32,000 bases of DNA from Trichlorobacter lovleyi SZ (GCF_000020385.1 NC_010814.1:2760001-2792000); one strand, 5' to 3'; positions 1,643-15,025 are shown, numbered from the stretch's first letter. Made by a program: numbers and translations. Notes: generated by a model not told the origin, from the sequence alone.

Positions 1643-1822
1643 ATGAGCAAATCAGCCGCTGTCCTGTTAATCTGTTTCATTATTGCCATTCTGGGGTTTG
1701 CCACCTGGCAACTCTTTCTTGGCAGGTTTGAGGCTGCCTTTTCCGCCCTGCCCTTTCTGGTAATCCTCTACCTGTTTGTCGCCCCCTGGAAAAAACAGAT
1801 ACCACGCAACGAACAATCTTAA
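1643..1822 (+). CDS. Possible 59-aa small membrane protein (two hydrophobic helices) upstream of the RND gene
   Basis: Own translation: MSKSAAVLLICFIIAILGFATWQLFLGRFEAAFSALPFLVILYLFVAPWKKQIPRNEQS*. It is hydrophobic and ends 14 nt before the next gene. No convincing Shine-Dalgarno, and it falls below the track length cutoff. Confidence 0.3.
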   Translation: MSKSAAVLLICFIIAILGFATWQLFLGRFEAAFSALPFLVILYLFVAPWKKQIPRNEQS

Positions 1823-1836
1823 TCTGGAGTATCCCG

Positions 1837-4497
1837 ATGTCTGCATCCCGTTTCTTTGGCGCCATCATCCGCCATCCTCGTATAGTGCTGGCCGTTGCCC
1901 TGCTGTTGGCTGCCTTGTCAATTGTCTACACATCCCAAAAGCTGGAGTTCCTGACCGGACGTGATGATCTGATGCCCCGCCATGCGGCGTTTCAGCAGGA
2001 TTATCAGGCCTACCGGGCTGCCTTTGGCGATCAGGAAGAGATCGCCGTGGTGATTGAAGGGGCTGATCCAGCCCTGGTCAGCCGTTTCAGCGACACCCTC
2101 TATGCACGGCTGTCCCAGGATAAACGCCTGTTTCTGGAGGTGCTGTACCCCGGCGGCATGCCCTATTTTCGTCAGAACGGCCTGCTGTTCAACTCCCTTG
2201 ATGAGCTGAAGGGGATGGCCAGTACCCTTGAGATGGCCGGTCCGGTGCTGCAGGATCTGGCAGCAGCCCCGTCGATCCAGACCCTGTTCAGCTCTCTGAC
2301 CAATCAGATCGATGACTACCTGAAGGCGCCATCTTCCGATAAACTGCAACGTCTGACCTTCATGCTGGGCACGCTGGACAAGGGCTTTGCCGGGTTTGAC
2401 GGTAAAAAAAGCGCCCTGTCCATGGACTCGTTCCTGTCCGGCGGCAGCGCCGACAAGCCTTCTGCCCTGGAAAACGCCGGCAGGCAGCAGGTGATCGCCA
2501 TCCGTCCCTTAAAGGAGACCGACAGCTTTGTACCGGCTGAAAAGGCGATCAGGAAAATCCGTGAAGAGCTGAATATCCTGCGACAGAAAGCTGAATTCAA
2601 GGGGATTACCGCCGGGATCACCGGAGTGCCGGTGCTGGAGTACGAAGAGATGGCCACCAGCATGGATGACATGACCATCGCCTCGGTCCTGTCGCTGGTG
2701 CTGACTGTTATCCTGCTGCTGTTTGCCTTCCGGGGGGTCAAAAACACGGTTGCCGCCATGGTTGCGCTGCTGATCGCCATCAGTATCGCCTTTGGCCTGG
2801 CCACCCTCTTTGTCGGCCACCTCAACATCCTTTCCATGGCCTTTGCGGTCATGCTGCTGGGGCTGGGGGTGGAGTACAGCATTCAGGTGGTGCTGCGCCA
2901 TCAGGAACTGCTTCAGCATGACAACTTTGAAGCAGCACTGCAGGAGAGCCTTGGCTCCAATCTGCGCCCGGTTCTGCTGGCCTTTGCCACCACTGCCCTG
3001 GCCTTCCTGACCTTCCTCTTAACCGACTTCCGAGGGATTGCCGAGCTGGGTCTGATTGCCGCCATGGGGGTCTTTGTCTGCTTTGCCGCCACCTTTACGG
3101 TGCTGCCTGCCCTGCTGGTCATGCTGCATAAAAAATCAGAAACCGGGGCACTGAAGCCGGTTCAACAAAACTCCAAGCCACGACTGCAGCGGCTGTTTGC
3201 CCGGCCCGGCCTGATTGTGGCTGCCACTACCCTGCTGGCCCTGGCCGGCACAGCTGCCCTGACCCGTGTGCCGTTTGACTTCAACATGCTCAACCTGCAG
3301 GCCAAGGGGCTGGAGTCGGTCACCTATGCCTATAAGCTGATGAAGAGCAAAGAAAATTCCGGTTACTTTGGCGTCTCCATGGCAAAGGACCGTGACGAGG
3401 CAATCAAGCTGACCAAGCGTTTTGAGGCACTGCCCAGTGTGGACCATGTGGTATCCCTGCCGGCCCTGGTGCCGGATCAGCAAGCGGAAAAGCTGGCTGA
3501 ACTGGAACGGATCAAACAGATCATGGCAAAGGTGCAGCCGGTGGCCTACGAGGAAAACCTGCGGGTAATGGAGCTGCCGGCCATCTTTGAGGGTTTCCGT
3601 GAGCGGGTGGAAAAGCTGAAGCTGAACCTTGAAGCCCGGAAGCTGCCTGAAGCGCAACCGACAGCCGCCTTCCTGACCACCCTGGACAGATTCTTTGCCG
3701 GACTGGAAAAGGAAAAGGATGGCAATGCCCTGACCATGCTGCGTGAAATGCAGGAAGCCATGTTTGCCCCGCTGCCGGAGAAGCTGAAGCTGCTGAAGGA
3801 AAGCCTGCAGGCCCGGGCCGTGACCGAGGCCGATGTTCCCCAGGCTCTGAAGCAGCGTTTTGTAGGCAAGGATGGCCGTCTGCTGCTGCAGATCGCCCCG
3901 AAAAAGGAGATCTTCAACGAACAGCCGCTGGCGGAGTTCGTCACCCAGATCAAGTCCGTTGATCCCCACGCCACCGGTGAACCGGTCAGCGTCTATGAAT
4001 CATTCAAGATCCTCAAGCTCTCCTACCTGCAGGCCTTCCTGTATGCCCTGGGGGGGGTGGTGCTGATCCTGCTGATCGCCTTCCGCAGCCTGCGCTCCAC
4101 CCTGCTGGGGGTCGCCCCGCTGGCAGTGGGGCTGCTGCTGATGGTGGGGGGGATGTGGCTGTTCGGCCTGAAGTTCAATGTGGCCAACATCATTGTCATG
4201 CCGCTCCTGCTGGGGGTCGGGATCGACTCGGCCATCTACATCATCAGCCGCCACCTGAAGGGGGAGGAATCACCAGTAGAGGTGGCCACCAGCAGCGCCG
4301 GCAAGGGAGTCTTCCTGAACGCCCTGACCATCCTGTTCAGCTTCGGTGCCCTGATGGTGGCCCGCCATCAGGGGGTGTTCAGTATCGGCGCCGTCATGTC
4401 ACTGGGCATGACCGCCATTGTACTGGCGTTTCTGGTGTTTTTACCGGCACTGTTACTGTTGCTTGATAAACGGAAAAACGAGATCAGACAGAGCTAA
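1837..4497 (+). CDS. RND/MMPL-superfamily exporter, HpnN-like (hopanoid-associated RND transporter family)
   Basis: 886-aa ORF with two blocks of ~6 TM helices (around aa 280-430 and 730-880), each preceded by a large soluble loop, which is the MMPL/RND architecture. The N-terminus MSASRFFGAIIRHPRIVLAVALLLAALSIVY...FLTGRDDLMP resembles HpnN-type proteins as I recall them. TGGAG lies 8 nt upstream of the ATG. Confidence 0.8.
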   Translation: MSASRFFGAIIRHPRIVLAVALLLAALSIVYTSQKLEFLTGRDDLMPRHAAFQQDYQAYRAAFGDQEEIAVVIEGADPALVSRFSDTLYARLSQDKRLFLEVLYPGGMPYFRQNGLLFNSLDELKGMASTLEMAGPVLQDLAAAPSIQTLFSSLTNQIDDYLKAPSSDKLQRLTFMLGTLDKGFAGFDGKKSALSMDSFLSGGSADKPSALENAGRQQVIAIRPLKETDSFVPAEKAIRKIREELNILRQKAEFKGITAGITGVPVLEYEEMATSMDDMTIASVLSLVLTVILLLFAFRGVKNTVAAMVALLIAISIAFGLATLFVGHLNILSMAFAVMLLGLGVEYSIQVVLRHQELLQHDNFEAALQESLGSNLRPVLLAFATTALAFLTFLLTDFRGIAELGLIAAMGVFVCFAATFTVLPALLVMLHKKSETGALKPVQQNSKPRLQRLFARPGLIVAATTLLALAGTAALTRVPFDFNMLNLQAKGLESVTYAYKLMKSKENSGYFGVSMAKDRDEAIKLTKRFEALPSVDHVVSLPALVPDQQAEKLAELERIKQIMAKVQPVAYEENLRVMELPAIFEGFRERVEKLKLNLEARKLPEAQPTAAFLTTLDRFFAGLEKEKDGNALTMLREMQEAMFAPLPEKLKLLKESLQARAVTEADVPQALKQRFVGKDGRLLLQIAPKKEIFNEQPLAEFVTQIKSVDPHATGEPVSVYESFKILKLSYLQAFLYALGGVVLILLIAFRSLRSTLLGVAPLAVGLLLMVGGMWLFGLKFNVANIIVMPLLLGVGIDSAIYIISRHLKGEESPVEVATSSAGKGVFLNALTILFSFGALMVARHQGVFSIGAVMSLGMTAIVLAFLVFLPALLLLLDKRKNEIRQS

Positions 4498-4511
4498 AGC
4501 AGATTTTGGTG

Positions 4512-5873
4512 CTACAAGTCCAGTGGGCTCTTCGGCTCCTGGATTGTCCTGACCGGCACGCAGTGGGTGTAAATCATGGTGGTCTTCAGACTTGAATGTC
4601 CCAATAGTGTCTGAATCACACGGATGTCATAGCCAGCCTGTAGCAGATGGGTAGCAAAAGAATGGCGGAAGGTGTGGGACGTAACCCGTTTCGGTATCTT
4701 CGCCTTACGCACTGCAGGATACAGCGCCTCCTGCAGTTCTGATTCATGCAGATGCCAACGTCGCTGTTGCCCGGTTTCTGCTGCCAAGGTTAGATTCTTC
4801 TGCGGAAAAAACCATTGATGGAGAAACTCCTTGGGCGCTTTGGGATATTTCTTTTCCACGCTATCATCCAGAAACACCCCATCGTACCCTACAGCCAGAT
4901 CCCGCTCATGCAGTTCCCCCACCAGCTTGATCTGCCGCTTTAACTCCGGTAGAATCGCCTCTGGAATCGGCACCGTGCGATCCTTCTTGCCCTTGCCATG
5001 TATGGTCAGTTTCCCCGCATCAAAGTTAAAATCACGCACCCGCAACTGCAGGCATTCAAACTGGCGCAAACCGCAGCCAAACAGTAATTTTACTACCAGA
5101 TCAAACGGATAGGCAAGGTGGGCAAGGATTGCATCAATCTCTTCGCGAGAAAGAACGGTGGGAATATACAAGGATTTCTTGGCGCGGGGCACATCACGCA
5201 GTTCGCCAAATTCTCGTTTCAATCCATGACGGTACAAAAACAGGAGTGAATTAAACGCCTGATTCTGCGTTGTCGATGCCACCTTGCAGGTAACAGCCAG
5301 GTGGGTCAGGTACGCTTTCACATCATCGCCGGTCAGCTCCTGTGGCGATCTATTCTTTAGAAAGTACTGAAATTTTCTCGACCAGTTAGCGTATGTCTTC
5401 AGGGTCTTGCGTGAATAATGACGAACCTTGATCTCATCTGCCATTGTCTTAAGAACAGCATCCCATTCCTGCGAATCAGACTTCTCCTGATAACCGGCTT
5501 CTACATATTGTGAAGCATATTTCTTAGGGGTAACTGGCGGTTCCGCAGAATCAGCAGAAACAGCAGTCCGCTTCTGACTAACAGCCTCGCTTTGTTGCTG
5601 TGGTACTAAATCCAGCTTCTGTACCTCAATGAAAACAGATACAGCGTAGGCTGCCTGACGGCACGCAAGCTCACTCTGTTTTTTTGCTTTAAGCTTCTCA
5701 ATAAAAAGAGGTAATTGCTCCATGGGGGTACCCGGTACAGGGTACTTGTTGCAGTAATCGAGAAAATAGCGACTCCACTTGATACACTCCGAAAAGTTGG
5801 CAGCAGGAACCCCACGTTTTTCCAACAGCTTTAAATATCGAGAAAAAAGCTCTTTGGGGAAGTCGATCATCAT
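4512..5873 (-). CDS. intI: Integron integrase (IntI family tyrosine recombinase) with a ~120-aa N-terminal extension
   Basis: Catalytic residues present: GCGLRQFECLQLRVRDF (Arg), HGKGKKDR (Lys), SHTFRHSFATHLL (His-x-x-Arg), LGHSSLKTTMIYTH (His, Tyr). The IntI-specific insertion between patch II and box II is present: AVGYDGVFLDDSVEKKYPKAPKEFLHQWFFPQKNL...QQRRWHLHESELQ. This matches the G.G.V.LP..L..KYP.A....WQWxFP......RHH pattern of integron integrases. AAGGA lies 6 nt upstream of the ATG. Confidence 0.88.
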   Translation of the reverse strand: MMIDFPKELFSRYLKLLEKRGVPAANFSECIKWSRYFLDYCNKYPVPGTPMEQLPLFIEKLKAKKQSELACRQAAYAVSVFIEVQKLDLVPQQQSEAVSQKRTAVSADSAEPPVTPKKYASQYVEAGYQEKSDSQEWDAVLKTMADEIKVRHYSRKTLKTYANWSRKFQYFLKNRSPQELTGDDVKAYLTHLAVTCKVASTTQNQAFNSLLFLYRHGLKREFGELRDVPRAKKSLYIPTVLSREEIDAILAHLAYPFDLVVKLLFGCGLRQFECLQLRVRDFNFDAGKLTIHGKGKKDRTVPIPEAILPELKRQIKLVGELHERDLAVGYDGVFLDDSVEKKYPKAPKEFLHQWFFPQKNLTLAAETGQQRRWHLHESELQEALYPAVRKAKIPKRVTSHTFRHSFATHLLQAGYDIRVIQTLLGHSSLKTTMIYTHCVPVRTIQEPKSPLDL

Positions 5874-5894
5874 ATAATTCCTTGAATTATTTAA

Positions 5895-5923
5895 TTTACA
5901 TCCTACAAAAGCTTTCGTATATT
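5895..5923 (+). promoter_or_regulatory. Candidate sigma70 promoter reading away from intI toward the cassette array (Pc-like)
   Basis: TTTACA (5895-5900), a 17-nt spacer, then TATATT (5918-5923), inside the AT-rich 88-bp intI upstream region. Confidence 0.45.
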
Positions 5924-5979
5924 TCCGAGCAATTCTTGATCAATCCTGCAAAAACAGCCATTTGGCGTCATGGAATCCT

Positions 5980-6354
5980 ATGCTTAAAGAGATGAAATCA
6001 CACTGTCACCTAAAGCCGGGCCAAAAGGGAACAAAGCGGCTCGTTGAACAGTATGGCGAATCGCTACTTTGTGTCCGTTATCGCTATGACAAAATTCGCG
6101 GTGTACGCCTAAAAACTGTAGAAATCATAGTCGAAGAGAGACCCTGGCTACCACCATTCTGCTTCAAAGATGGAGATGTTGCGCCAATAACGGTTGCTTT
6201 TGATGAAACCGGACTGAGGGCTAAATTACACAAAATGCGAGCGAAATGGGACCCAAATTTGAAAGTATGGCTGGTACCGTACCATCTAATACGTGGAACC
6301 GAGCTTGAAAACCGAATCCCTGAAGAGTATTTGGATGGTAGCAAACGCATATAA
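5980..6354 (+). CDS. Hypothetical protein (~124 aa) between intI and attI; the C-terminal part resembles the small AKWD...K.W.VP module (DUF5710-like) of plasmid primase/relaxase N-termini
   Basis: ORF MLKEMKSHCHLKPGQKGTKRLVEQYGESLLCVRYRYDKIRGVRLKTVEIIVEERPW...LRAKLHKMRAKWDPNLKVWLVPYHLIRG. The track start at 5962 is a TTG. ATG 5980 or ATG 5992 is more likely, so the start is uncertain. Confidence 0.6.
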   Translation: MLKEMKSHCHLKPGQKGTKRLVEQYGESLLCVRYRYDKIRGVRLKTVEIIVEERPWLPPFCFKDGDVAPITVAFDETGLRAKLHKMRAKWDPNLKVWLVPYHLIRGTELENRIPEEYLDGSKRI

Positions 6355-6359
6355 AGCAT

Positions 6360-6434
6360 CTTATATAGGAAACCGGCCGGGTTCCTCATATAAGAAGCAA
6401 GCATCCTATATAGGAAACAAGTTTCTTATATAGG
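6360..6434. repeat. Four phased copies of a YYTATATARG palindrome with GGAAAC/GTTTC flanks, forming two long inverted repeats
   Basis: CTTATATAGG (6360-6369), CTCATATAAG (6385-6394), CCTATATAGG (6405-6414, a perfect 10-bp palindrome) and CTTATATAGG (6425-6434). Centre-to-centre spacing is 25, 20 and 20 bp. Pair 1: CTTATATAGGAAACC-GGCC-GGGTTCCTCATATAAG. Pair 2: CCTATATAGGAAAC-AA-GTTTCTTATATAGG. Confidence 0.8.
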
Positions 6435-6440
6435 GAAACC

Positions 6441-6459
6441 GTAGATTAACGAGTTGAAC
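6441..6459 (+). other. attI-like simple site; predicted crossover between G6453 and T6454
   Basis: GATTAAC-GA-GTTGAAC: two inverted core-like boxes, the right one fitting GTTRRRY. TTGAAC (6454-6459) is the exact complement partner of the R'' box GTTCAAC of the first attC (8133-8139). No GTT triplet occurs at all between intI and nt 5990, so attI cannot be adjacent to intI. Confidence 0.6.
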
Positions 6460-6474
6460 CATGGAGGCTTGTGG

Positions 6475-7233
6475 ATGATATTTCCAATTCTTGAATATGA
6501 CCCAACCCGCACTGCCTTTATTGAACCTTCAAAGGTTATCATGCCTCTGGATATGCCTCAGTGTTGTGTAATCTGTTTTTTCAGAGAAGTGATCGATAAA
6601 ATTGTCATCGAACACAATGCAAAGGTATTGGTAACAGACTTGTGGGAGGATGGACCTCATCCGGTTTACGAAATTGAATACAACGACCAGAGGTTGGCAT
6701 TCTTTCATCCAGGTATTGGTGCACCACTGGCTGCGGGTCTGCTCGAAAAGGTCATTGCTTATGGTGGTCGGAAATTTATGGTTTGTGGAGGATGTGGAGT
6801 TCTTGATAAAGATATGAGCGTTGGGAGCTTAATGGTTGTATCCAGCGCAATCCGCGACGAAGGCGTTTCATATCATTACCTGCCACCAAGCCGAGAAGTC
6901 TTTGCGAACCCAGCGGGGGTGAAGGCGCTTGAGGACACCTTGAATATAAAGAACATTACGCATCTTGTCGGTAAAACCTGGACGACCGATGCACCTTTCA
7001 GAGAGACGCCGGATAGAATAGCCAAAAGAAAAGAAGAAGGCTGTCTTGCTGTAGAAATGGAAAGCGCCGGCATGATGGCAGTTGCACAATTTCGTGGTGT
7101 AACTTTAGGACAGATATTATATGGCGGGGACGATCTGACCTGCGTGGAGTGGGATGAACGTTTATGGCAATCAAATACCACCATACGCGAGAAGCTTTTC
7201 TGGCTGTGCGCGGATGCAGTTTTACTTGCCTGA
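6475..7233 (+). CDS. Nucleoside phosphorylase, PNP_UDP_1 (purine/uridine phosphorylase) family
   Basis: MIFPILEYDP...FFHPGIGAPLAAGLLEKVIAYGGRKFMVCGGCGVL...MVVSSAIRDEGVSYHY...TWTTDAPFRET...CLAVEMESAGMMAVAQFRGV. The G-rich phosphate loop and the EMES block are typical of the family. GGAGG lies 7 nt upstream of ATG 6475. The track start 6454 (TTG) is the cassette's first base and is unlikely to be the true start. Confidence 0.8.
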   Translation: MIFPILEYDPTRTAFIEPSKVIMPLDMPQCCVICFFREVIDKIVIEHNAKVLVTDLWEDGPHPVYEIEYNDQRLAFFHPGIGAPLAAGLLEKVIAYGGRKFMVCGGCGVLDKDMSVGSLMVVSSAIRDEGVSYHYLPPSREVFANPAGVKALEDTLNIKNITHLVGKTWTTDAPFRETPDRIAKRKEEGCLAVEMESAGMMAVAQFRGVTLGQILYGGDDLTCVEWDERLWQSNTTIREKLFWLCADAVLLA

Positions 7234-7276
7234 TCAGTGAAAAGAAGAACAGGAATTATTTTGTAAAGGAGAGGGC

Positions 7277-8104
7277 ATGCTTCAAGAGAAAATGATTGAG
7301 AATATCCGTGAGAAGTGTCACCAGGACATTCGCGTTGTGTCCGCGCTGATGTTCGGGTCGTTCGCAACCGGCGAGGGTGATCAATATTCGGATATAGAAT
7401 TCGCGGTGTTCATCCGCGACGACTCGTTAAATGATTTCGATCAGCGTTCATGGCTCAATTCATTCAGCCCGGTTGCCGCTTACTTCCTGGACGATTTCGG
7501 CCACCACACAGCACTTTTCGAGAACGGCGTGCGTGGCGAGTTCCACTTTATGCGGGCTTCGGAGCAGTCGGTTGTTGCCGGCTGGCAGGGATACGGGTGG
7601 TTTCCTTCGCTTGAAGCGGCGGTGTTGCTGGATCGAGAAGGCGAATTGTCGCAGTATGCGCGGCTGCTTGTGGGAGGGCCTCCAAAACGTGAAGGGGCTG
7701 AACTGGTAGAGGGTCTGTCCCTTAACCTGATCAACCTGATGCTGTTCGGCGCAAATCTTCTCAATAGAGGCGAATACGCTCGTGCATGGGCTTTATTGGG
7801 CAAGGCGCACGAAAATCTGCTAAAGCTGGCTCGACTTCATGAAGGGGAGACTGACCATTGGCCGACTCCTTCGCGGGGTCTCGAGATCGACCTTTCTGGT
7901 AATGCATATCGTCGCTACCTGACTTGTACGGCCAGCGCTGAACGTGTTCCTTTGTGCAGAGCCTATTGTGAGTCATGGAGGTGGAGTAGAGAGCTGATAG
8001 AGGCGGTTGTCAGACCACATAACATCGAACTCCCACAATCAGTCATGGCACAGTTGGAAATACTGCTTGATAACGTGACTGCTGATCCAAACCCAAACCC
8101 GTAA
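7277..8104 (+). CDS. Nucleotidyltransferase of the lincosamide nucleotidyltransferase LnuB/LnuF (LinF) type
   Basis: MLQEKMIENIREKC...ALMFGSFATGEGDQYSDIEFAVFI...RGEFHF...LLNRGEYARAW. These match blocks I recall from LnuB/LnuF (GSFTKGEGDQYSDIEFYIFL, RGEFHF, LKRGEYARS). AAGGAGAGGG RBS. Only 43 bp separate it from the preceding gene, with no attC between them. Confidence 0.8.
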   Translation: MLQEKMIENIREKCHQDIRVVSALMFGSFATGEGDQYSDIEFAVFIRDDSLNDFDQRSWLNSFSPVAAYFLDDFGHHTALFENGVRGEFHFMRASEQSVVAGWQGYGWFPSLEAAVLLDREGELSQYARLLVGGPPKREGAELVEGLSLNLINLMLFGANLLNRGEYARAWALLGKAHENLLKLARLHEGETDHWPTPSRGLEIDLSGNAYRRYLTCTASAERVPLCRAYCESWRWSRELIEAVVRPHNIELPQSVMAQLEILLDNVTADPNPNP

Positions 8105-8132
8105 GGCTTCATAGGCAACAGAAACAATAAAT

Positions 8133-8193
8133 GTTCAACCAGGAAGATGCACCTGACCAAAAAGCCGTCAGGTGATCTCCCGGCCCGTTGAGC
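8133..8193 (+). other. attC site 1 (61 bp), end of cassette 1; crossover G8187|T8188
   Basis: R'' GTTCAAC (fits RYYYAAC), then CAGGAAGATGCACCTGAC, loop CAAAAAGCC, GTCAGGTGATCTCCCGGCCC, then R' GTTGAGC (fits GTTRRRY). The arms pair (CACCTGAC/GTCAGGTG, AGAT/ATCT) with an unpaired G in the 5' arm, as expected for attC extrahelical bases. Confidence 0.85.
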
Positions 8194-8234
8194 AAAACAC
8201 CCGCAAAATGATAACCAAAGGGAGAAACCATATT

Positions 8235-9137
8235 ATGGAGCGGAGAAATTACAGGCATTATTTGACATCTATCTTTCTAATTTGTCTTGCAGTAACTGTT
8301 TGGGTACTCCAGGCAAAGGCAGCCGAACCTCAAAAATTGATTGGTGAACAAATTTCTATGATCGAAAAACGTCATGGTGGCCGCCTCGGTATTGCTGCGC
8401 TCAATACTGCGACTGGCATGCGTATCGAGTACCGTTCAGCAGAGCGGTTTGCAATGTGCAGCACATTCAAATTCATACTAGTGGCGGCAGTTCTCAAGCA
8501 AGTTGATGAAAAGAAGATCTCCCTGGATCGTGGAATTCCATATACTACAGCCGATCTTCTCGATTGGGCACCTATCACAAAAAAGCACGTATCTGATGGG
8601 GCAATGACTGTAGAGCGACTCTGTGCAGCGGCCATCGAATACAGTGACAACACGGCAGCGAATCTCCTTCTCGACTTGCTTGGTGGGCCTAAGGCTGTTA
8701 CTGCCTATGCGCGATCTCTGGGCGATTCAGTGACTCGCCTGGATCGAAACGAACCATCATTAAACGACAACTTACCGAATGATGATCGCGATACCACCAG
8801 CCCTTCATCGATGGTGGAAACGATGAACAAGGTTCTCTCGGGCCATGCCCTTTCTCCATCTTCTCGCAAGATTCTCGAAAATTATCTACTCGCTAATACT
8901 ACGGGTGCAAACAGGCTACGCGCCGGTATCCCTTTGGATTGGCGTGTAGGGGACAAAACGGGCACCGGCAGTAACGGAGCCGTCAACGACATTGCTGTCA
9001 TGTGGCCACCAGATAGGTCACCGATTTTCGTAGCAGTCTATTATTCCGGTTCCCCATCTCCCAACTCTGATCGAGAAGCAGTGCTCGCTGAGGTGGGCAA
9101 ACTTATCGCTATCGAATTCAACAAACGCAGTCACTAG
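8235..9137 (+). CDS. bla: Class A (serine) beta-lactamase with signal peptide
   Basis: S-x-x-K (RFAMCSTFKF), SDN (EYSDNTAANLLL), omega-loop RLDRNEPSLNDNLPNDDRDTTSP and KTG (GDKTGTG). Signal peptide MERRNYRHYLTSIFLICLAVTVWVLQAKA. GGGAG lies 10 nt upstream of ATG 8235. The track start 8172 lies inside attC1. The RFAMCSTFKF block is as I recall it in GES-type cassette enzymes. Confidence 0.9.
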   Translation: MERRNYRHYLTSIFLICLAVTVWVLQAKAAEPQKLIGEQISMIEKRHGGRLGIAALNTATGMRIEYRSAERFAMCSTFKFILVAAVLKQVDEKKISLDRGIPYTTADLLDWAPITKKHVSDGAMTVERLCAAAIEYSDNTAANLLLDLLGGPKAVTAYARSLGDSVTRLDRNEPSLNDNLPNDDRDTTSPSSMVETMNKVLSGHALSPSSRKILENYLLANTTGANRLRAGIPLDWRVGDKTGTGSNGAVNDIAVMWPPDRSPIFVAVYYSGSPSPNSDREAVLAEVGKLIAIEFNKRSH

Positions 9138-9192
9138 AATAGCAGGGAAATATGAGGGGTCTCAACTCTATATAAATGATTTGAAGTGATGA

Positions 9193-9270
9193 TCCCAACC
9201 AGCCGGTTGCACGCCGCCCCGCCCGGAAAACCGACCGGGCGATGCGGGTGAACCGGGCAACCCGTTATAC
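9193..9270 (+). other. attC site 2 (78 bp, GC-rich), end of cassette 2; crossover G9264|T9265
   Basis: R'' TCCCAAC, then CAGCCGGTTGCACGCCGCCCCGCCCGG, loop AAAACCGA, CCGGGCGATGCGGGTGAACCGGGCAACCC, then R' GTTATAC. Arm pairing: CCGGGCG/CGCCCGG, GCGG-GTG/CACGCCGC and AACCGG/CCGGTT, with bulges. Confidence 0.75.
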
Positions 9271-9404
9271 CAAGACAAAAAACCGAATTAAAACCGAAAA
9301 TCGAGCGCCCTGGAAGGGCACAAAATCTGAAGTATTTATTTACTTTTGTCTATAGTTATGAGAAATTATACGCGAAATTTTTTAGTATGCTGGGAGATAC
9401 ATCT

Positions 9405-10424
9405 ATGAAATATATGGTATGGAATAACAAGGGCGGCGTTGGTAAAACATTTATAACATTCATTCTTGCGTCTGAATACGCGCTTGCACACCCTGACGAA
9501 GATGTTGTTGTTGTTGATTTGTGTCCTCAAGCAAATGTTTCAGAAATGCTTTTAGGGGGAAATGGAAAAGGTGAAACCAATTTACAAAAATGTTACGACA
9601 ACCAAAGAACAATTGCTAGCTACATAAAAGCTAGATACGACAAGTCCCGTTTTGGTAAATTGGGAGATGAAACCGAATATTTTGTGAAAGTCGCTGACTA
9701 TAACGACGGGATGCCGGTTAATATGTATCTCATCCCTGGCGATATGGATTTAGATATATGTTCAACCATAATCAATTATTTGGCGCAAGCCCCGGAAAAG
9801 TCAGCATGGGTAAAGAGTAGAAAATTCTTAGTTGACCTCATCGAACCTTTTAATGGTGGAAATAAAAACAGGAAAAAAGTCTTTTTCTTTGATTGTAATC
9901 CAAGTTTTGCAAACTACACAGAAATGGCAGTTATTGCTTCTGATAGAATTATTGTTCCATGCACAGCTGACGCGGCATCCATAAGAGGTATTCATAATCT
10001 TTTTAGAATGATTTATGGAATAAAAGCGGGACAAGAATTTTCTGATGACGCGGTTTTTGATACCTTCAGTTCAAAGATAAAAGAATCTGGCATCAAACCA
10101 CCCAAAGTACACTTGTTTATTCAAAACAAATCTAGAGTATTAGACGCTTCAGCAACTAGTGCATTCAAGGCACATATCCAAGAAATAAAGGATATAGCGA
10201 GCGTTTTGAAGAAAAAATATCCTGATCACTTCACAGATAATAAAGGCGCTGTTTTGAACGTAAAGGACGGTAATACCCTAACATCTATATTGAATCACAC
10301 AGGACTTCCCTTATCTAAGGTACAACCTAAAACATACAGTATATATGGTAAAAGAACTCAAGCAAACCAAACGCAAATTGAGCCACTTTTAGATGATATA
10401 AAGAAATGTTTGGCAGTGCTTTGA
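9405..10424 (+). CDS. ParA/MinD-family P-loop ATPase (orphan; no ParB-like partner)
   Basis: Deviant Walker A MKYMVWNNKGGVGKTF, A' VVVVDLCPQAN, Walker B KVFFFDCNPSF. GGGAGA lies 8 nt upstream of ATG 9405; the track start 9387 adds 6 residues. The cassette is very AT-rich. Confidence 0.8.
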   Translation: MKYMVWNNKGGVGKTFITFILASEYALAHPDEDVVVVDLCPQANVSEMLLGGNGKGETNLQKCYDNQRTIASYIKARYDKSRFGKLGDETEYFVKVADYNDGMPVNMYLIPGDMDLDICSTIINYLAQAPEKSAWVKSRKFLVDLIEPFNGGNKNRKKVFFFDCNPSFANYTEMAVIASDRIIVPCTADAASIRGIHNLFRMIYGIKAGQEFSDDAVFDTFSSKIKESGIKPPKVHLFIQNKSRVLDASATSAFKAHIQEIKDIASVLKKKYPDHFTDNKGAVLNVKDGNTLTSILNHTGLPLSKVQPKTYSIYGKRTQANQTQIEPLLDDIKKCLAVL

Positions 10425-10470
10425 TTTTTAAACACAAAATACAGATTATCAATAATTCTTCTCTTACATT

Positions 10471-10499
10471 AAAGCGCCTGATTGGGCGCTTTTTTATTT
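10471..10499 (+). terminator. Rho-independent terminator inside cassette 3, upstream of its attC
   Basis: AAAGCGCC-tgattg-GGCGCTTT followed by TTTTATTT. Confidence 0.75.
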
Positions 10500-10518
10500 G
10501 ATTTTCAAAGATCAAAAT

Positions 10519-10572
10519 GTATAACCAACGCCTTAGACCCGTTTTGACGGGTCAAGGCTCACCCCGTTAAAT
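10519..10572 (+). other. attC site 3 (54 bp), end of cassette 3; crossover G10566|T10567
   Basis: R'' GTATAAC, then CAACGCCTTAGACCCG, loop TTTTGA, CGGGTCAAGGCTCACCCC, then R' GTTAAAT (fits GTTRRRY). GCCTTAGACCCG pairs with CGGGTC-AAGGC, leaving one unpaired A. R'' is the exact reverse complement of G+TTATAC, the first bases of this cassette (9264-9270). Confidence 0.85.
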
Positions 10573-10599
10573 TAGCAAATTCGATTCTAAGGAGGGGGT

Positions 10600-11235
10600 A
10601 TGAGGACGGCAGTTGAAAATTTACAAGTTTCACATCTTGTTCATTTTACTCGGCTAGAAAATCTTGAAGGTATTATGCGGCAAGGCATTCGTACACGATA
10701 TGATCTGGATAATTCAGGGACAGGATATATCTATAACGATGACTTAAGACTTGATGGGTACCCGAATGCAGCGTCAATATCAGTAAGTTACCCAAACTAC
10801 AAAATGTTTTATTCTTATCGCTGTGCGGACCATAATGTGCCATGGGTTGTTTTGAGATTAAGGCCGGACATTTTATGGGAAAAGAACTGTGCTTTTTGTT
10901 GGGAGAATGCCGCTTCTACGAATGTAACTTGTATTCCTATTGAAAATAGAAGGGGACGGGAAGCTTTTCTAGATTTGTTCGTAAATAAATCAGGTTACCC
11001 GACAAGGGAAACCACCTTAATCCCGCGAAGCTATCCAACTCATCCTCAGGCCGAAGTATTGGTTTTTGGGACAATTGAGCCTGCTTACATCACCAGAGTC
11101 GATTTGCCTACTCGCTTTAATCCAAACTCTGTTTTTTCGTCAATTAACAGACACTGCGAGTTTTGGTATGATGATGATTTGTTTTGGCCTCGACTTGACC
11201 ATCGGCATTGGCCAGCAAATTCATTTCAATTATGA
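10600..11235 (+). CDS. DarT-like ssDNA ADP-ribosyltransferase (DUF4433 family), putative toxin
   Basis: N-terminal SHLVHFTRLENLEGIMRQGI matches the DUF4433 hH(F/I)T..NL.sIh..G motif. A central FCWENAAS block corresponds to the F..(D/G)NA block. The C-terminal HPQAEVLVFGTIEPAYITRV matches the catalytic QAE(F)LV...I..I motif of DarT. Strong RBS AAGGAGGGGG. Confidence 0.7.
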   Translation: MRTAVENLQVSHLVHFTRLENLEGIMRQGIRTRYDLDNSGTGYIYNDDLRLDGYPNAASISVSYPNYKMFYSYRCADHNVPWVVLRLRPDILWEKNCAFCWENAASTNVTCIPIENRRGREAFLDLFVNKSGYPTRETTLIPRSYPTHPQAEVLVFGTIEPAYITRVDLPTRFNPNSVFSSINRHCEFWYDDDLFWPRLDHRHWPANSFQL

Positions 11236-11345
11236 GGGAGTTGATTGTAACGGGTGATCAAAAGCCTGGATACAGTCTGATAACAAAGACTATTTGCTCA
11301 AAAAAATATGTGAGAAATTTCACTTAGCCAATCAAAGGATTTATC

Positions 11346-12050
11346 ATGGCAGAAAGACCAGTCTACATACCTAATATTTCAGGAACTAATTTAGTTAAAA
11401 CTCAATATGTAGATTTTAAATGGTTCCCTGGTATGGCAATAGTTCAAAAACAAAAATCAATAGAATCACTTCACGAGGCCGCAAAAAAATTATTAAACAT
11501 TACTAACCTGTTAGAGATTTCGAGTAAATCTAAGACAACGTTAGGAGTGGATTTAAGTGCGTTCAACCTGATGATAACAACAATAAAATATAATAAAACT
11601 TTTAGCGTTGAGTCTGCTTTCCAATCAAGCAAAGTATTTGAGAAAGGGGGACCTTATTTAGACCTCCTCGACAAAACTTCACGCGAAGCTAAAAAGGATG
11701 GTCGTTTGCAAACATCAGGGCGATTAAAATGCTTCAAATTCTTTGGTATTGAGTGGGGACTAGAGCCACAAACTGCCTTCTATGATTGGCTGTATATAAA
11801 TGCACTGAAAAAAAACTCTGATTATGCTGAACAGGTCATGGAGTATTCAGCTTTCACAGACATTGAATTTAACCCTGAGCGATCGATTAATTGTCAAGCT
11901 TATTCTGCTGCACTTTATGTTTCCCTTTGCCACCGAGACCTTCTTGAATATGCTACTTCCTCTCAAACTGCATTTCTTGAAGTGGTTACAGGAGCCCCTA
12001 TCAGCAACGCACGCCAAGACGATATTGTGCAAGGGGCGCTCAAATTCTGA
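11346..12050 (+). CDS. Uncharacterised 234-aa protein, putative partner (antitoxin?) of the DarT-like gene; no macrodomain or NADAR motifs recognisable
   Basis: ORF MAERPVYIPNISGTNLVKTQYVDFKWFPGMAIVQKQKSIESLHEAAKK...YDWLYINALKKN...FNPERSINCQAYSAALYVSL. AAGGA lies 8 nt upstream of the ATG. Its stop codon abuts attC4. It shares one cassette with the DarT-like gene, 110 bp downstream of it. Confidence 0.7.
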   Translation: MAERPVYIPNISGTNLVKTQYVDFKWFPGMAIVQKQKSIESLHEAAKKLLNITNLLEISSKSKTTLGVDLSAFNLMITTIKYNKTFSVESAFQSSKVFEKGGPYLDLLDKTSREAKKDGRLQTSGRLKCFKFFGIEWGLEPQTAFYDWLYINALKKNSDYAEQVMEYSAFTDIEFNPERSINCQAYSAALYVSLCHRDLLEYATSSQTAFLEVVTGAPISNARQDDIVQGALKF

Positions 12051-12122
12051 AACTAACCAGGTGGCGGCACGCAGTCGGCGCGGAAAACCTCGCGCCGCTG
12101 GTGCGCCCCCACCCCGTTGGTC
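12051..12122 (+). other. attC site 4 (72 bp, GC-rich), end of cassette 4; crossover G12116|T12117
   Basis: R'' AACTAAC, then CAGGTGGCGGCACGCAGTCGGCGCGG, loop AAAACCT, CGCGCCGCTGGTGCGCCCCCACCCC, then R' GTTGGTC. The arms pair (CGCGCCG/CGGCGCG, GTGC/GCAC, CCACC/GGTGG) with bulges. The architecture and the GGAAAACC loop match attC2. Confidence 0.75.
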
Positions 12123-12137
12123 AGATAAGAGGAAGGC

Positions 12138-12416
12138 ATGAATATTACCAAAGACTCTAAGAAAGGGGACAAATTTGCGTGTCCGTGTTGCGGCTATAAG
12201 ACACTGTCAGAAAGAGGAGGCTACGACGACATCTGTAATGTCTGCTTCTGGGAAGATGATGGTCAAGACGATGAGGATGCCGACGTTATCAGAGGCGGCC
12301 CCAACGGGAAACTCAGTCTTTCGGAAGCCCGACGTAACTTCGCAGATTTTGGTGCCTGTGAGAAGAGCCACATCCGCAACGTCAGGAAACCCCAACAAGA
12401 GGAAATGCCGAACTAA
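12138..12416 (+). CDS. CPCC-family cysteine-rich small protein
   Basis: KFACPCCGYKTLSERGGYDDICNVCFWEDDGQDD...GGPNGKLSLSEARRNF matches the CPCC...C.VCFWEDD pattern of the CPCC family. AAGAGGAAGG RBS. Confidence 0.75.
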   Translation: MNITKDSKKGDKFACPCCGYKTLSERGGYDDICNVCFWEDDGQDDEDADVIRGGPNGKLSLSEARRNFADFGACEKSHIRNVRKPQQEEMPN

Positions 12417-12434
12417 GCAGAGACACTTCCCTTG

Positions 12435-12737
12435 TTACGGTTCAGAAAGTCGTGTTTCAATGTCCATATGCCCGTGCAAAACACGGACAATCTCGATAGT
12501 ATCGGTAAGCGTTTGGCGGTAAAAAATTACATGGCTACCAGCAAGCAATTTCCGGTAGCCAATGCGAATATCGCTGCAATCTTTCCCTTTAAGCGGATTG
12601 ACAGCCAACTGACGGAATGAAACGTCCAACATTTGTAGATACAAATCACGCTGTTCACGCCCCCAGCGGTTTTGGGTGAACTTGGCGATCTCTTTCAAAT
12701 CAGCCTTAGCCATGTTGGTGAGGGTAAAAGAAGGCAT
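12435..12737 (-). CDS. parE: Type II toxin, ParE/RelE family
   Basis: MPSFTLTNMAKADLKEIAKFTQNRWGREQRDLYL...GYRKLLAGSHVIFYRQTLTDTIEIVRVLHGHMD shows the ParE-family pattern. Its ATG overlaps the parD stop (ATGA at 12735-12739). Confidence 0.85.
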   Translation of the reverse strand: MPSFTLTNMAKADLKEIAKFTQNRWGREQRDLYLQMLDVSFRQLAVNPLKGKDCSDIRIGYRKLLAGSHVIFYRQTLTDTIEIVRVLHGHMDIETRLSEP

Positions 12738-12979
12738 CAGTTGAAACTTTTGCCGTCAAGTTCTGCCAGTAAACCCGAAAGCGAATAATCAGCGATGCCG
12801 CTTTCTTCTCCCTCAATTAGCGAACGGCGCAACAAAGACAACTTGGTCTCCCGTTCTTCCAACAGTCGCAGACCGGCTCGGATTGTCTCACTTGCTGAAC
12901 CAAAACGGCCTTGAACAACCTGCTGAGAAATGAAATTTTCGTAGTGTTTGCCGAGAGTAACACTGGTGTTTTTTTGCAT
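12737..12979 (-). CDS. parD: Type II antitoxin, ParD family
   Basis: MQKNTSVTLGKHYENFISQQVVQGRFGSASETIRAGLRLLEERETKLSLLRRSLIEGEESG matches the ParD_antitoxin family pattern. GGAGG lies 8 nt upstream of the ATG. Confidence 0.85.
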   Translation of the reverse strand: MQKNTSVTLGKHYENFISQQVVQGRFGSASETIRAGLRLLEERETKLSLLRRSLIEGEESGIADYSLSGLLAELDGKSFN

Positions 12980-13013
12980 GAGATTACCTCCATCACTGCT
13001 GTTATGACACTAC

Positions 13014-13040
13014 ATTATAATATTTATTGGTATCAGGCAA
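13014..13040 (-). promoter_or_regulatory. Candidate promoter for parDE
   Basis: On the minus strand: TTGCCT (complement of 13035-13040), a 15-nt spacer, then a perfect TATAAT (complement of 13014-13019), about 35 nt upstream of the parD ATG. The spacer is shorter than optimal. Confidence 0.4.
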
Positions 13041-13053
13041 GAGTTAGAATCAT

Positions 13054-13110
13054 GCCAAACCAGGCAAAAGCAGCGGCCTAACCAGCCGCTGTTCTCCCAA
13101 ACCGTTAAGC
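13054..13110 (+). other. attC site 5 (57 bp), end of cassette 5; crossover G13104|T13105
   Basis: R''-like GCCAAAC, then CAGGCAAAAGCAGCGGC, loop CTAACCA, GCCGCTGTTCTCCCAAACC, then R' GTTAAGC (fits GTTRRRY). Central stem CAGCGGC/GCCGCTG. It shares the AAC-CAG start and CC-GTT end with the other four sites, but the outer arm pairing is weaker. Confidence 0.65.
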
Positions 13111-13180
13111 AACCAATAAATTGCGTGTGCCCAACCACAAGCCTGGCACTGAAATACCGGATACCCAGAACCGAGAAGGT

Positions 13181-13720
13181 TTACTGAGAATACGGAGACT
13201 CCCCTTCAACATCGAATGGAATGCTTTTCCCTCCCAGCAGTAGTTCAAGCTCTTTCACTTTGGCGCCGTTCACACGTGCACCAGACAGAAAATATGTCGG
13301 TGTACCGACAACATCCAGTTTGGCTGCTACTGCCTGATGCCGCTTCAGGGCGCCATGGTCATTATATCGGCGTGCCGCTAGTTTTTCGTCAAAATCAAGG
13401 GAGCCGCTGAAGACCTGCTGGTAGGCTGCTGCACGGTCCGGTGAGCTGAGGATGTAATGAGCTTTTTGTGCAGCATCCGGATGGTTCTTTAAGGCAATCA
13501 GGAAGATGTAGCGGGTCACATCCTTCCGCATTGCCCAATAACGGGCCATGCGACGACTGAAACGGCAGTCCGGGTCTGATATTTCAACCACAATCTTGTT
13601 GCCGGTACCGACCCGGATCGCGTCGTGAAGCGGAATTTTCTTGAGCCAGCTATTGTCCGCGGCTGCAGATGCAGATGGTACCCAGACCAGAAAAATCAAG
13701 AGGATAACGATGCGAAACAT
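13181..13720 (-). CDS. Secreted thioredoxin-fold protein (DsbA/DsbC-like) with a CXXS active-site variant
   Basis: Signal peptide MFRIVILLIFLVWVPSASAAA from ATG 13720 (GGAG 7 nt upstream; the track start 13777 adds 19 aa). DPDCRFS sits at the usual CXXC position, and the C-terminus has VVGTPTYFL (cis-Pro loop, TP). Confidence 0.7.
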   Translation of the reverse strand: MFRIVILLIFLVWVPSASAAADNSWLKKIPLHDAIRVGTGNKIVVEISDPDCRFSRRMARYWAMRKDVTRYIFLIALKNHPDAAQKAHYILSSPDRAAAYQQVFSGSLDFDEKLAARRYNDHGALKRHQAVAAKLDVVGTPTYFLSGARVNGAKVKELELLLGGKSIPFDVEGESPYSQ

Positions 13721-13945
13721 AAGCAGCTCCTGAACATGAATCCGTTGGTGAAGCAACAAGGCTTTACAGCAGAGCAATACAGGAATGAGAAGAAGCAGGG
13801 CCAGGCCTTACCGGTCTGCCCGGTTATCCAAAGGACCCTCTGATTTCAAGATTGTTACAGAGGTTTTGGTAGCATAGCAGGCCAACCAACATCAACAGGC
13901 TGCTCTTCCGCGAATAAAGCCGTTGATTGGAACCACCGGCAATCG

Positions 13946-15025
13946 TTACTGTTGCTTGACCGTCATGGAAAGCCAGATGCCGGTTAGGACAAAGATCAGG
14001 TTTGCCCCCCAGGCAGCAACAAAGGGGGGCAGTACCCCGCTACGGCCATAGGACTGAACAGCAGCATTGATGATGAAGTAGGCAAAACCGATAGCAACAC
14101 CAGCCCCGACTCCCATGGCAACACCACTGGTACGACCGGTTTTGAGGGCAAAGGGAATCCCCAGTACCACCATCACAAAGGCGCCGAACGGTAGAGCCAG
14201 CTTGGCATGCATCATGGTGCGGTAGCGCCCGGCAGGGTAGCCCCCTTTTTCAAGGCTGACCGCATACTCCCGCAGCTTACGGAAGCTGAAGTTGTCGGCG
14301 TTGTTGTCCAGAATCCGCAGATCATCCACCTTGAGGGTAAGCGGCACGCTCAGCCGTGCCGATGCCACCACCCCGCCCTGCCCGGCAAAGCTGCGGGTAC
14401 GGACCTGCAGCAGTTCCCACCCGCCGCTGCCATATAGCGCCTGTTCGGCATCCATGCGTCTGACCGGCTGCATGTCGGCCGAGAGTTCCCAGACAGTCAC
14501 CCCTTTCAGGGTGCGGGTGAGCGGCTCAAATACCTTGGCCTGCAGGATCAGGTTGTTGGAACGGAACCAGATGTTGTTGAGCCGGAAGAAGGTGTTGACG
14601 CTCTGCTTCTTGATGACCACTTTTTCAATATGCTCCATCTGCTGGTAGCTTTTGGGCACCACGAATTCAGAGTTGACCAGCAGTACCAGGCTGCCGAGCA
14701 GCCCCAGCATCAGGATCGGCAGGACAATGCGGGGGATACTGAGGCCGCAGCTGCGCAGGGCGGTCAGTTCACTGCTGCGGGAGAGCATCCCCAGGGCCAG
14801 CAGGGTGGCCATCAGCACGGCAAACGGCATGGTCTGGCCCAGCATCTCGGGGATCTTGAACAGGAAGAACTGCAGGATGGCGCTCAGGGAGGCGCCGGCC
14901 TTGCTGAAGCGGCCCAGTTTCTCCATGAAGTCCAGGATCAGGTAGACCGCCAGAAAACCGCCCTGACAGAGCAGGAAGAGCCGCAGCCAGGTACCTGCCA
15001 GATAGCGTCCGACAATACCAAACAT
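13946..15025 (-). CDS. lptG: LPS export ABC transporter permease LptG (YjgP/YjgQ family)
   Basis: 359 aa. Layout is MFGIVGRYLAGTWLRLFLLC..., three TM helices, a periplasmic beta-jellyroll region and three more TM helices. Its start overlaps the lptF stop (ATGA at 15023-15027). Confidence 0.85.
   Translation of the reverse strand: MFGIVGRYLAGTWLRLFLLCQGGFLAVYLILDFMEKLGRFSKAGASLSAILQFFLFKIPEMLGQTMPFAVLMATLLALGMLSRSSELTALRSCGLSIPRIVLPILMLGLLGSLVLLVNSEFVVPKSYQQMEHIEKVVIKKQSVNTFFRLNNIWFRSNNLILQAKVFEPLTRTLKGVTVWELSADMQPVRRMDAEQALYGSGGWELLQVRTRSFAGQGGVVASARLSVPLTLKVDDLRILDNNADNFSFRKLREYAVSLEKGGYPAGRYRTMMHAKLALPFGAFVMVVLGIPFALKTGRTSGVAMGVGAGVAIGFAYFIINAAVQSYGRSGVLPPFVAAWGANLIFVLTGIWLSMTVKQQ

Follow-up and report, generated by a model that had tools for sequence, protein, structure and literature searches.

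Trichlorobacter (formerly Geobacter) lovleyi SZ is a dechlorinating bacterium, and the question raised by this locus is whether a low-GC segment of its chromosome is a complete integron and whether that integron has been active recently. We analyzed a stretch of 32,000 nucleotides (the window; all coordinates are those of the whole stretch), in which a first-pass annotation had placed an integrase gene (intI), an attI site and five attC sites at 4512-13110. All of these components were found: the integrase scored above the cut-off of its family model, the attI crossover lies at G6453|TT, and five attC sites bound five cassettes. We conclude that the window very probably holds a complete, recently active chromosomal integron, carried by a 9.48-kb island within the overlap of the hpnN and lptG genes. 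The integron itself is ordinary, and its platform is a clade-specific variant. The decisive support comes from comparison with other sequences rather than from folding.

The intI gene (4512-5873, minus strand) is intact and encodes 453 amino acids, and its database annotation already reads "integron integrase". We found that the protein belongs to the IntI family. The hidden Markov model TIGR02249 (integron integrase) gave 353.3 bits against a cut-off of 265, and the full model was covered by residues 140-452. The nearest solved structure was VchIntIA (PDB 2A3V, E = 4e-70). The alignment to VchIntIA was free of gaps across the IntI-specific insertion (query VFLDDSVEKKYPKAPKEFLHQWFFPQ vs VWLPTALKEKYPNAPYEFRWHYLFPS; the insertion segment is also given as KKYPKAPKEFLHQWFFPQ), whereas Xer structures aligned only on either side of it. 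In the same VchIntIA alignment, the catalytic box I Arg, the Lys, the HxxR motif, the His and the Tyr were all present. These results bear out the earlier claim that the recombinase has the IntI-specific insertion. The equivalog model for IntI1, NF011946, gave 239 bits against a cut-off of 435, indicating that the enzyme is not of the IntI1 type that marks class 1 integrons.

To locate the attI crossover, we compared the window with metagenome assemblies. Five metagenome contigs carry a platform (intI, the intervening gene orf124, and attI) that is 100% nucleotide-identical to that of strain SZ, with three different first cassettes at the same attI. Loci L003 and L004 match the window without a difference as far as GTT 6453-6455 and lose all resemblance to it immediately afterwards, and the L005 contig terminates at 6455. 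In L002, the attI GTT is followed by about 1.9 kb of other cassettes and then by an attC whose GTT precedes the first bases of cassette 1. Since the switch points lie right at GTT 6453-6455, they are the signature of cassette insertion at attI. The attI core is also kept in related platforms. By eye, we also noted in L002 (reverse complement, ~660-1195 after attI) that 15-bp inverted repeats, CTAGGAGCCTGTCGG, enclose some 500 bp of the alternative array. This segment, perhaps part of a transposase gene, may have inserted into an attC or may be a miniature element.

The second line of comparison concerned the cassettes. Nine loci share the DNA of the bla cassette (cassette 2) with the window at 100% identity, and in each the match covers exactly 8187-9266, beginning at the G of the attC1 GTT and ending at the attC2 GTT. 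The upstream neighbor of this shared cassette varied between attC1, a different attC and three attI sites other than that of the window (at least five junctions), and the downstream continuations all differed. These loci show the exact crossover points at attC1 and attC2, as the identical-platform contigs do for attI. Such complete identity of the bla cassette between many platforms implies that it moved very recently. The exact beta-lactamase protein was indexed in 1,706 blocks of a public assembly collection, and it had no match in PLSDB plasmids. A variant cassette that holds lnuF only (82-84% identical) ends at the attC1 GTT in five loci. In another locus (L131), cassettes 1 and 2 occur together at 99.9% identity, followed by aadA-qacEdelta1-sul1-orf5, the class 1 3'-conserved segment. 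Sequences 99-100% identical to this segment are present on more than 5,000 plasmids, and the attC that precedes the two cassettes there presumably resembles the aadA type.

The same bla cassette was seen in first position in two further kinds of array. Locus L127 (1-8903) encodes a 467-amino-acid IntI with a similar N-terminal extension, a core 81% identical to ours and no orf124 or repeats, directly beside a Tn3-family transposase; behind bla, its array holds a cassette resembling lnuF and the reverse transcriptase of a group II intron. L127 looks like a mobile integron belonging to this clade. In L124, L126, L128, L129 (CP060239.1) and L132, an extended IntI of 434 amino acids (56% identical core) stands beside contractile-injection-system/phage-tail genes. 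The identical bla cassette is followed there by LinB-like and erythromycin-esterase-like cassettes, and one of these loci lies in a 2.2-Mb complete genome.

An alternative explanation is that the integron is a fossil, once functional and now static in SZ, and that the variation between samples arose elsewhere or long ago. The array is short, with five cassettes, and intI is deleted or truncated in many related platforms. In addition, the T run at 5686 is T7 in the window and T8 in an independent SZ assembly (SRR253106 contig, L006); the extra base would frameshift intI but is probably a homopolymer sequencing error. However, the intact intI of the window recurs without a single nucleotide change in the five independent metagenome assemblies with their different first cassettes. 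Furthermore, its catalytic residues are all kept, and the very recent movement of the bla cassette does not fit a static element. We consider the fossil explanation very unlikely and retain that of a recently active integron. L006 and the window differ only in homopolymer lengths, T7 to T8 at 5686 in intI and A8 to A9 at 11816 in the NADAR gene. Each of these differences would cause a frameshift; both are probably sequencing errors, with phase variation as a less likely alternative.

We then examined the attC sites. By definition, attC sites are imperfect inverted repeats with RYYYAAC and GTTRRRY at their ends, and the window has five such sites. All five begin with xxxxAAC-CAR and finish with CC-GTTxxxx. 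The window contains six occurrences of the pattern AACCAR-N32-62-CCGTT, where 0.78 would be expected by chance; these are the five attC sites and one further match within the parA open reading frame (ORF). Folding of the bottom strands, scored against shuffles, gave the z-scores listed in the table (-2.2 to -4.4). Single-base bulges were found on the R''-L'' arm in 5/5 sites, and their confinement to one arm is the asymmetry expected of attC. The pairing between each cassette start and its own R'' box gave a total of 29, which is the maximum over 120 permutations and was reached by 2 of them. Hence the hairpins with their conserved ends, and the pairing of 7/7, 5/7, 7/7, 5/7 and 5/7 that the first-pass annotation had offered as an internal test, were reproduced.

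The five attC sites (54-78 nt) do not align with one another. Because MAFFT alignments of attC sites misplaced the R'' boxes, no general attC model was built. The substitute covariance model was built solely from attC sites of other loci, is family-specific, and lends partial support; attC4 (E = 1e-5) and attC5 (E = 0.013) were its two best matches in the window. A search of 4000-14500 against Rfam, which has no attC family, gave no match at E <= 1. A scan for AAC...GTT with constrained folding was set aside as too unspecific, with about 40 matches per strand in this GC-rich window. That unspecific scan was also the sole source of a short attC candidate at 12390-12440, in the interval separating the CPCC gene from ParE. 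The candidate is unsupported, as the covariance model had its nearest match (12374-12440, E = 0.5) on the other strand. Elsewhere, an attC type, AACCAGCGGCGACAGCGGTCTCCGCTGACGCTCCGCCGCTGGCGCCTTGAGACGTT, stands nearly unchanged behind unrelated cassettes in L040, L046, L061, L076, L056 and L002, which include a cyanobacterial array and metagenome arrays of the same platform type.

To characterize the cassettes, we compared their products with family models. The lincosamide nucleotidyltransferase of cassette 1 reached 455.2 bits with the Lnu(F) model NF000119, barely above the cut-off of 450, and the gene has just 72-73% nucleotide identity to plasmid lnu(F). The beta-lactamase gave 342 bits with NF033103 (cut-off 200) and reached no named family cut-off; its translation contains STFK (SxxK), SDN, RNEPSLN (E166) and KTG. 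Resistance to the corresponding drugs would be predicted from these matches. In cassette 4, DarT (PF14487, 88 bits) and NADAR (PF22397, 319 bits) are encoded by adjacent genes and appear to form a DarT-NADAR pair, for which PADLOC gave no match. The hairpin that follows the ParA-like gene is a strong one. GC content was 0.495 for cassettes 1 and 2, 0.363 for cassette 3, 0.405 for cassette 4 and 0.473 for cassette 5, against 0.58-0.60 for the host. The contrast previously noted by eye, between moderate bla and lnu cassettes and AT-rich ParA and DarT cassettes, is therefore real, and the spread of 0.36-0.50 makes an origin from different donors plausible.

A conserved leader of about 60 nt, AAAAACCGAATTAAAACCGA...GCGCCC-TTGA-GGGGCGC, with a small hairpin, was seen after the boundary GTT of three unrelated cassettes (window 9264-9325; L046 7455-7520 and 9417-9480). 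It was found solely in the window strain and L046, and may be a shared 5' regulatory element.

Table. Coordinates of the integron, its cassettes and the ends of the island in the window
Feature	Position	Strand	Description
Left 15-bp direct repeat GTTACTGTTGCTTGA	4452-4466		Perfect over 15 bp, 24/25 bp imperfect; copy of overlap sequence
intI, catalytic core and SAM-like core-binding domain (aa 144-453)	4512-5444	-	IntI-specific insertion; R-K-HxxR-H-Y residues
intI, N-terminal extension (aa 1-143)	5445-5873	-	Predicted four-helix domain aa 7-89, then disordered linker
Sigma-70-like promoter TTTACA-17-TATATT	5895-5923	+	Upstream of orf124; kept in related intI-containing loci; candidate Pc
orf124 (ACD96290)	5980-6354	+	124 aa, fold unmatched; conserved gene between intI and attI
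Four palindromic YCTTATATAGGAAAC copies	6354-6441		Centers ~6366, 6388, 6411, 6431; putative operators of orf124 product
attI core ATTAACGAGTT|GAAC	6445-6459	+	Crossover G6453|T6454
Cassette 1	6454-8187	+	PNP/UDP-phosphorylase-like gene 6475-7233; Lnu(F)-family lincosamide nucleotidyltransferase 7277-8104; ends in attC1
attC1	8133-8193	+	61 nt, fold z -3.3, R''/start pairing 7/7
Cassette 2	8188-9264	+	Class A beta-lactamase (no named family) 8235-9137; 1,077 bp; ends in attC2
attC2	9193-9270	+	78 nt, fold z -3.5, pairing 5/7
Cassette 3	9265-10566	+	ParA-like P-loop ATPase 9387/9405-10424; terminator-like hairpin 10471-10492; attC3
attC3	10519-10572	+	54 nt, fold z -4.4, pairing 7/7
Cassette 4	10567-12116	+	DarT 10600-11235; DarT1-associated NADAR antitoxin 11346-12050; ends in attC4
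attC4	12051-12122	+	72 nt, fold z -3.9, pairing 5/7
Cassette 5	12117-13104	+	Cys-rich CPCC protein 12138-12416 (+); ParE 12435-12737 (-); ParD 12737-12979 (-); ends in attC5
attC5	13054-13110	+	57 nt, fold z -2.2, pairing 5/7
Island tail beyond attC array	13105-13944	-	Thioredoxin-like secreted protein 13181-13720 (-); missing from empty-site genomes
Right 15-bp direct repeat GTTACTGTTGCTTGA	13945-13959		Overlaps lptG stop codon

The next question was how the integron is placed in the chromosome. The GC profile showed a 9.5-kb trough of 0.33-0.54, from about 4400 to about 13900, in a stretch of otherwise 0.58-0.62. The flanking genes were assigned by family models, HpnN with 835 bits (TIGR03480, cut-off 752), LptG with 312 bits (240) and LptF with 301 bits (230), so that the location between core envelope genes proposed earlier stands. 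Exact protein matches were HpnN ACD96288, the integrase ACD96289/WP_012470621, ACD96290, ACD96292, ACD96293 and LptG ACD96301. In T. thiogenes and five Geobacter metagenome-assembled genomes (MAGs), hpnN and lptG are convergent and overlapping with zero insert, and they represent the empty site. This comparison of related genomes had been named with the first-pass annotation as one that could refute the integron, and its outcome supports it. Alignment to the empty site is lost after 4466 and regained from 13945; the island is therefore 4467-13944, inserted in the 3'-end overlap of the two genes. The island starts within the final 31 nt of hpnN, and the ten terminal codons of hpnN are therefore island-derived. 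Both limits given in the first-pass annotation need correction: intI ends at the point 14 bp beyond the hpnN stop, but the island itself starts at 4467, and 13110 is the end of the array, with the island continuing to 13944. We found no transposase or plasmid gene among the genes of 4467-13944, and the location is chromosomal, which is not the picture of a mobile integron. The thioredoxin-like gene of the tail and cassettes 3-5 had no match in any fetched related locus. A sixth attC candidate at 13880-13928, which would make the thioredoxin-like gene a cassette, was unsupported (fold z -1.75, covariance model E ~2-3).

In other T. lovleyi strains (L133-L136, 8650-10367), the space from hpnN to lptG is taken by a different insert of 1.7 kb, with an 81-amino-acid ORF, a PIN/RHH toxin-antitoxin pair and no integrase. 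It holds an 87-bp patch 91% identical to window 13128-13214, a remnant of the thioredoxin-gene region. This insert with its remnant indicates that the hpnN-lptG junction is a variable insertion hot spot. Inserts at this junction were seen in L024 and L029 too. We rejected L028 (Geobacter sp. UBA6151) as a second integron at hpnN-lptG, since host genes separate its hpnN from the intI remnant and the site is a different one. The hpnN gene of L001, compared with window 1736-4500, is about 85% identical up to ~3750-3900 and then 99-100% identical through the whole platform. This break in identity indicates that the integron and its flanking DNA moved between diverged lineages by homologous recombination in the flank.

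The direct repeats at the ends of the island suggest another possibility, that the whole 9.5-kb island is a site-specific integrative element, with IntI (perhaps through its extra N-terminal domain) as the island integrase and the 15-bp repeats as attL and attR. A perfect 15-bp (imperfect 24/25-bp) direct repeat of the target does flank the island and starts with GTT, intI adjoins the left repeat as in genomic islands, and the same platform is found beside hpnN genes just ~85% identical. However, the identical tract of L001 passes the repeat into hpnN (~99-100% back to ~3900), which fits homologous recombination in the flank instead. Related platforms are located at unrelated chromosomal sites, the insert of the other T. 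lovleyi strains at this junction lacks an integrase, and no circular form is known. We regard the integrative element as extremely unlikely, and the island is treated here as DNA that carries an integron.

Two features set the platform apart. The first is in the integrase. Residues 1-143 of IntI lie outside all family models searched. This N-terminal extension is 30-68% identical among relatives and is always in frame with the integrase core-binding domain; in 9/9 full-length relatives adjoining orf124 it belongs to the same open frame. A profile of the extension matched 1,220 representative proteins at E <= 1e-10, which is an upper bound since the profile also spans the start of the ordinary core-binding domain. 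AlphaFold predicted a confident four-helix bundle at residues 7-89 (predicted local distance difference test, pLDDT, ~94), followed by a disordered, flexible linker of about 45 residues. The best PDB fold matches of the extension were the N-terminal DNA-binding domains of the tyrosine recombinases Cre, XerA, VchIntIA and Tn1549 Int. In the model, the extension thus resembles a core-binding domain and would be an extra four-helix domain.

Other arrangements of the extension were also observed. In protein P0244 of L121 (459 amino acids), the N-terminal extension and SAM-like domain are joined to ankyrin repeats, which stand in place of the catalytic domain. A large internal deletion of intI, fusing the extension to the last 25-70 residues, was seen in L028 (16399-16788), in proteins P0005 and P0006, in L109 and in L114 (6640-6849); the L114 remnant and the window protein show 100% identity over 70 amino acids.

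The second feature is located between intI and attI. The textbook integron platform consists of intI, attI and the cassette promoter Pc. Here, orf124 and four palindromic repeats are added. To assess their distribution, metagenomes were scanned for relatives; at least 588 were detected, 80 loci were fetched and about 60 could be inspected. Homologues of orf124 number at least 792 and occur in Geobacter, Pelobacter, Pelotalea, Desulfobacteraceae and one cyanobacterium. The integrase is the sole conserved neighbor of orf124. Among loci with at least 1.5 kb upstream of orf124, nine have a full divergent IntI with the extension, four have remnants and 28 have none. In nearly all loci, with or without intI, orf124 is followed by 3-6 copies of a lineage-specific 14-18-bp palindrome and then by an attI-like core (for example ATTAACGAGTT). 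Three or more palindrome copies followed orf124 in 50/57 loci, compared with 4/57 in a control stretch, and the attI core was matched downstream of the repeats in 41/57 loci, the sequences diverging past the core. attC arrays are located downstream of orf124 even in loci lacking intI. The 434-amino-acid (L124, L129) and 467-amino-acid (L127) types, which have the extended IntI without orf124, are also without the repeat array. Since the repeats are missing where the extended IntI is present and orf124 is absent, they go with orf124.

From these associations we infer that the Orf124 product binds the four repeats and controls cassette transcription, attI use, or both. Searches of Pfam, NCBIfam and PADLOC with Orf124 gave no match. 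The possibility that orf124 is itself a cassette was rejected: it has no upstream GTT boundary or attC, is always followed by the repeats and the attI core, and is always beside intI where intI is present. The sequence TTTACA-17-TATATT would be the best candidate for Pc. Inspection of the intI-orf124 spacer by eye revealed no LexA-type box of the GGTT...ACC type.

The repeats could also be read differently, as arm-type sites for the N-terminal extension of IntI, in the manner of lambda Int, and not as operators of Orf124. In favor of this reading, a flexible linker sets the extension apart as a helical domain of its own, its best fold matches are DNA-binding N-domains of tyrosine recombinases, and attI1 has accessory IntI1-binding direct repeats, according to passages of PMC3146285. 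On the other hand, intact palindromes persist in the 28 loci that have orf124 and no adjacent intI, the extended platforms of the L124 type and of L127, which are without orf124, have no repeat array, and the palindromic form suits a dimeric regulator. Arm-type sites are unlikely in our view, and we prefer Orf124 as the putative ligand of the repeats. More broadly, it is possible, and we put it forward tentatively, that this is an undescribed and widespread type of platform. It would combine a small DNA-binding Orf124, four cognate operators abutting attI and an integrase with a second core-binding-like domain. A platform-encoded factor would govern cassette capture and/or expression, and loss of orf124 would accompany mobilization, as in the Tn3-associated relative.

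Besides the frameshifting homopolymer of L006, several observations speak against our interpretation of the locus. The case for activity in strain SZ itself comes from variation between samples. The substitute covariance model gave attC1 E = 0.2 and no match for attC2 and attC3. The boundaries of cassettes 3-5 were drawn from sequence and structure and not from comparison across contexts, and a content of two or three genes, as in three of the cassettes, is atypical. For the platform, the evidence for Pc consists of a consensus match kept in relatives. The structure model of Orf124, although confident (pLDDT 89), had no relative in the PDB (Foldseek against the PDB, no match at E < 0.4), and the fold matches of the IntI extension were not statistically significant (E = 0.25-1.7).

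Taken together, the data are consistent with the following mechanism. The tyrosine recombinase IntI would recombine double-stranded attI (ATTAACGAG|TTGAAC) with folded single-stranded attC hairpins, so that circular cassettes would be inserted at attI and excised between attC sites. A promoter upstream of orf124 would read through orf124 and attI into the array, where Orf124 bound to the four repeats could exert its control. The two toxin-antitoxin cassettes (4 and 5) would probably stabilize the array.

We compared this integron with known systems. Like class 1 integrons, it has intI and attI in divergent arrangement, its resistance cassettes stand in a short array whose attC sites are heterogeneous, and its cassettes 1 and 2 recur in an array that ends in aadA-qacEdelta1-sul1. 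It differs from them in an integrase that is not IntI1 and is ~115-130 amino acids longer, in its chromosomal location in an island with no transposition genes, and in the protein-coding gene and four palindromes between intI and attI. The Vibrio cholerae integron is likewise chromosomal, and its integrase VchIntIA, which shares the IntI-specific insertion, is the nearest to ours among solved structures. Toxin-antitoxin cassettes are common to both integrons, one of them in reverse orientation in the T. lovleyi array. However, V. cholerae has hundreds of cassettes with uniform repeats, whereas T. lovleyi has five with dissimilar attC sites and adds the N-terminal domain and orf124. The chromosomal location is shared with sedentary large-array integrons, but the long array with similar attC sites is not. 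The heterobivalent integrases lambda Int and Tn916 Int also have an extra N-terminal domain on a flexible linker and a repeat cluster beside the crossover site. In T. lovleyi, the extra domain is predicted to be four-helix and weakly core-binding-like (E >= 0.25), not a beta-sheet arm-binding fold, and the repeats co-occur with orf124 and not with the extension.

The presence of intI genes in this organism has been reported. Nemergut et al. (2008, PMC2426708) list chromosomal deltaproteobacterial intI genes for G. metallireducens and G. lovleyi, with at least two intI genes in G. lovleyi, one of them in a deltaproteobacterial clade, according to passages of that paper. Those passages deal with intI phylogeny, and in them we found no mention of attI, cassettes, the N-terminal extension or an intervening gene. 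In the searchable literature, whose coverage is incomplete, we found neither this array nor its cassette sharing with class 1-type arrays described, and likewise nothing on the N-terminal domain or orf124. The platform features are thus probably new.

These findings place a class A beta-lactamase without a named family, together with an Lnu(F)-family cassette, in the chromosomal integron of an anaerobic, organohalide-respiring sediment bacterium. They also make cassette exchange between environmental chromosomal integrons and clinical-type integrons traceable, at 99.9-100% nucleotide identity, and the beta-lactamase merits characterization ahead of its arrival in pathogens. If the extra gene, the repeats and the extra domain are functional, recombination at attI or cassette expression could be controlled by factors encoded in the platform, and not by host factors alone.

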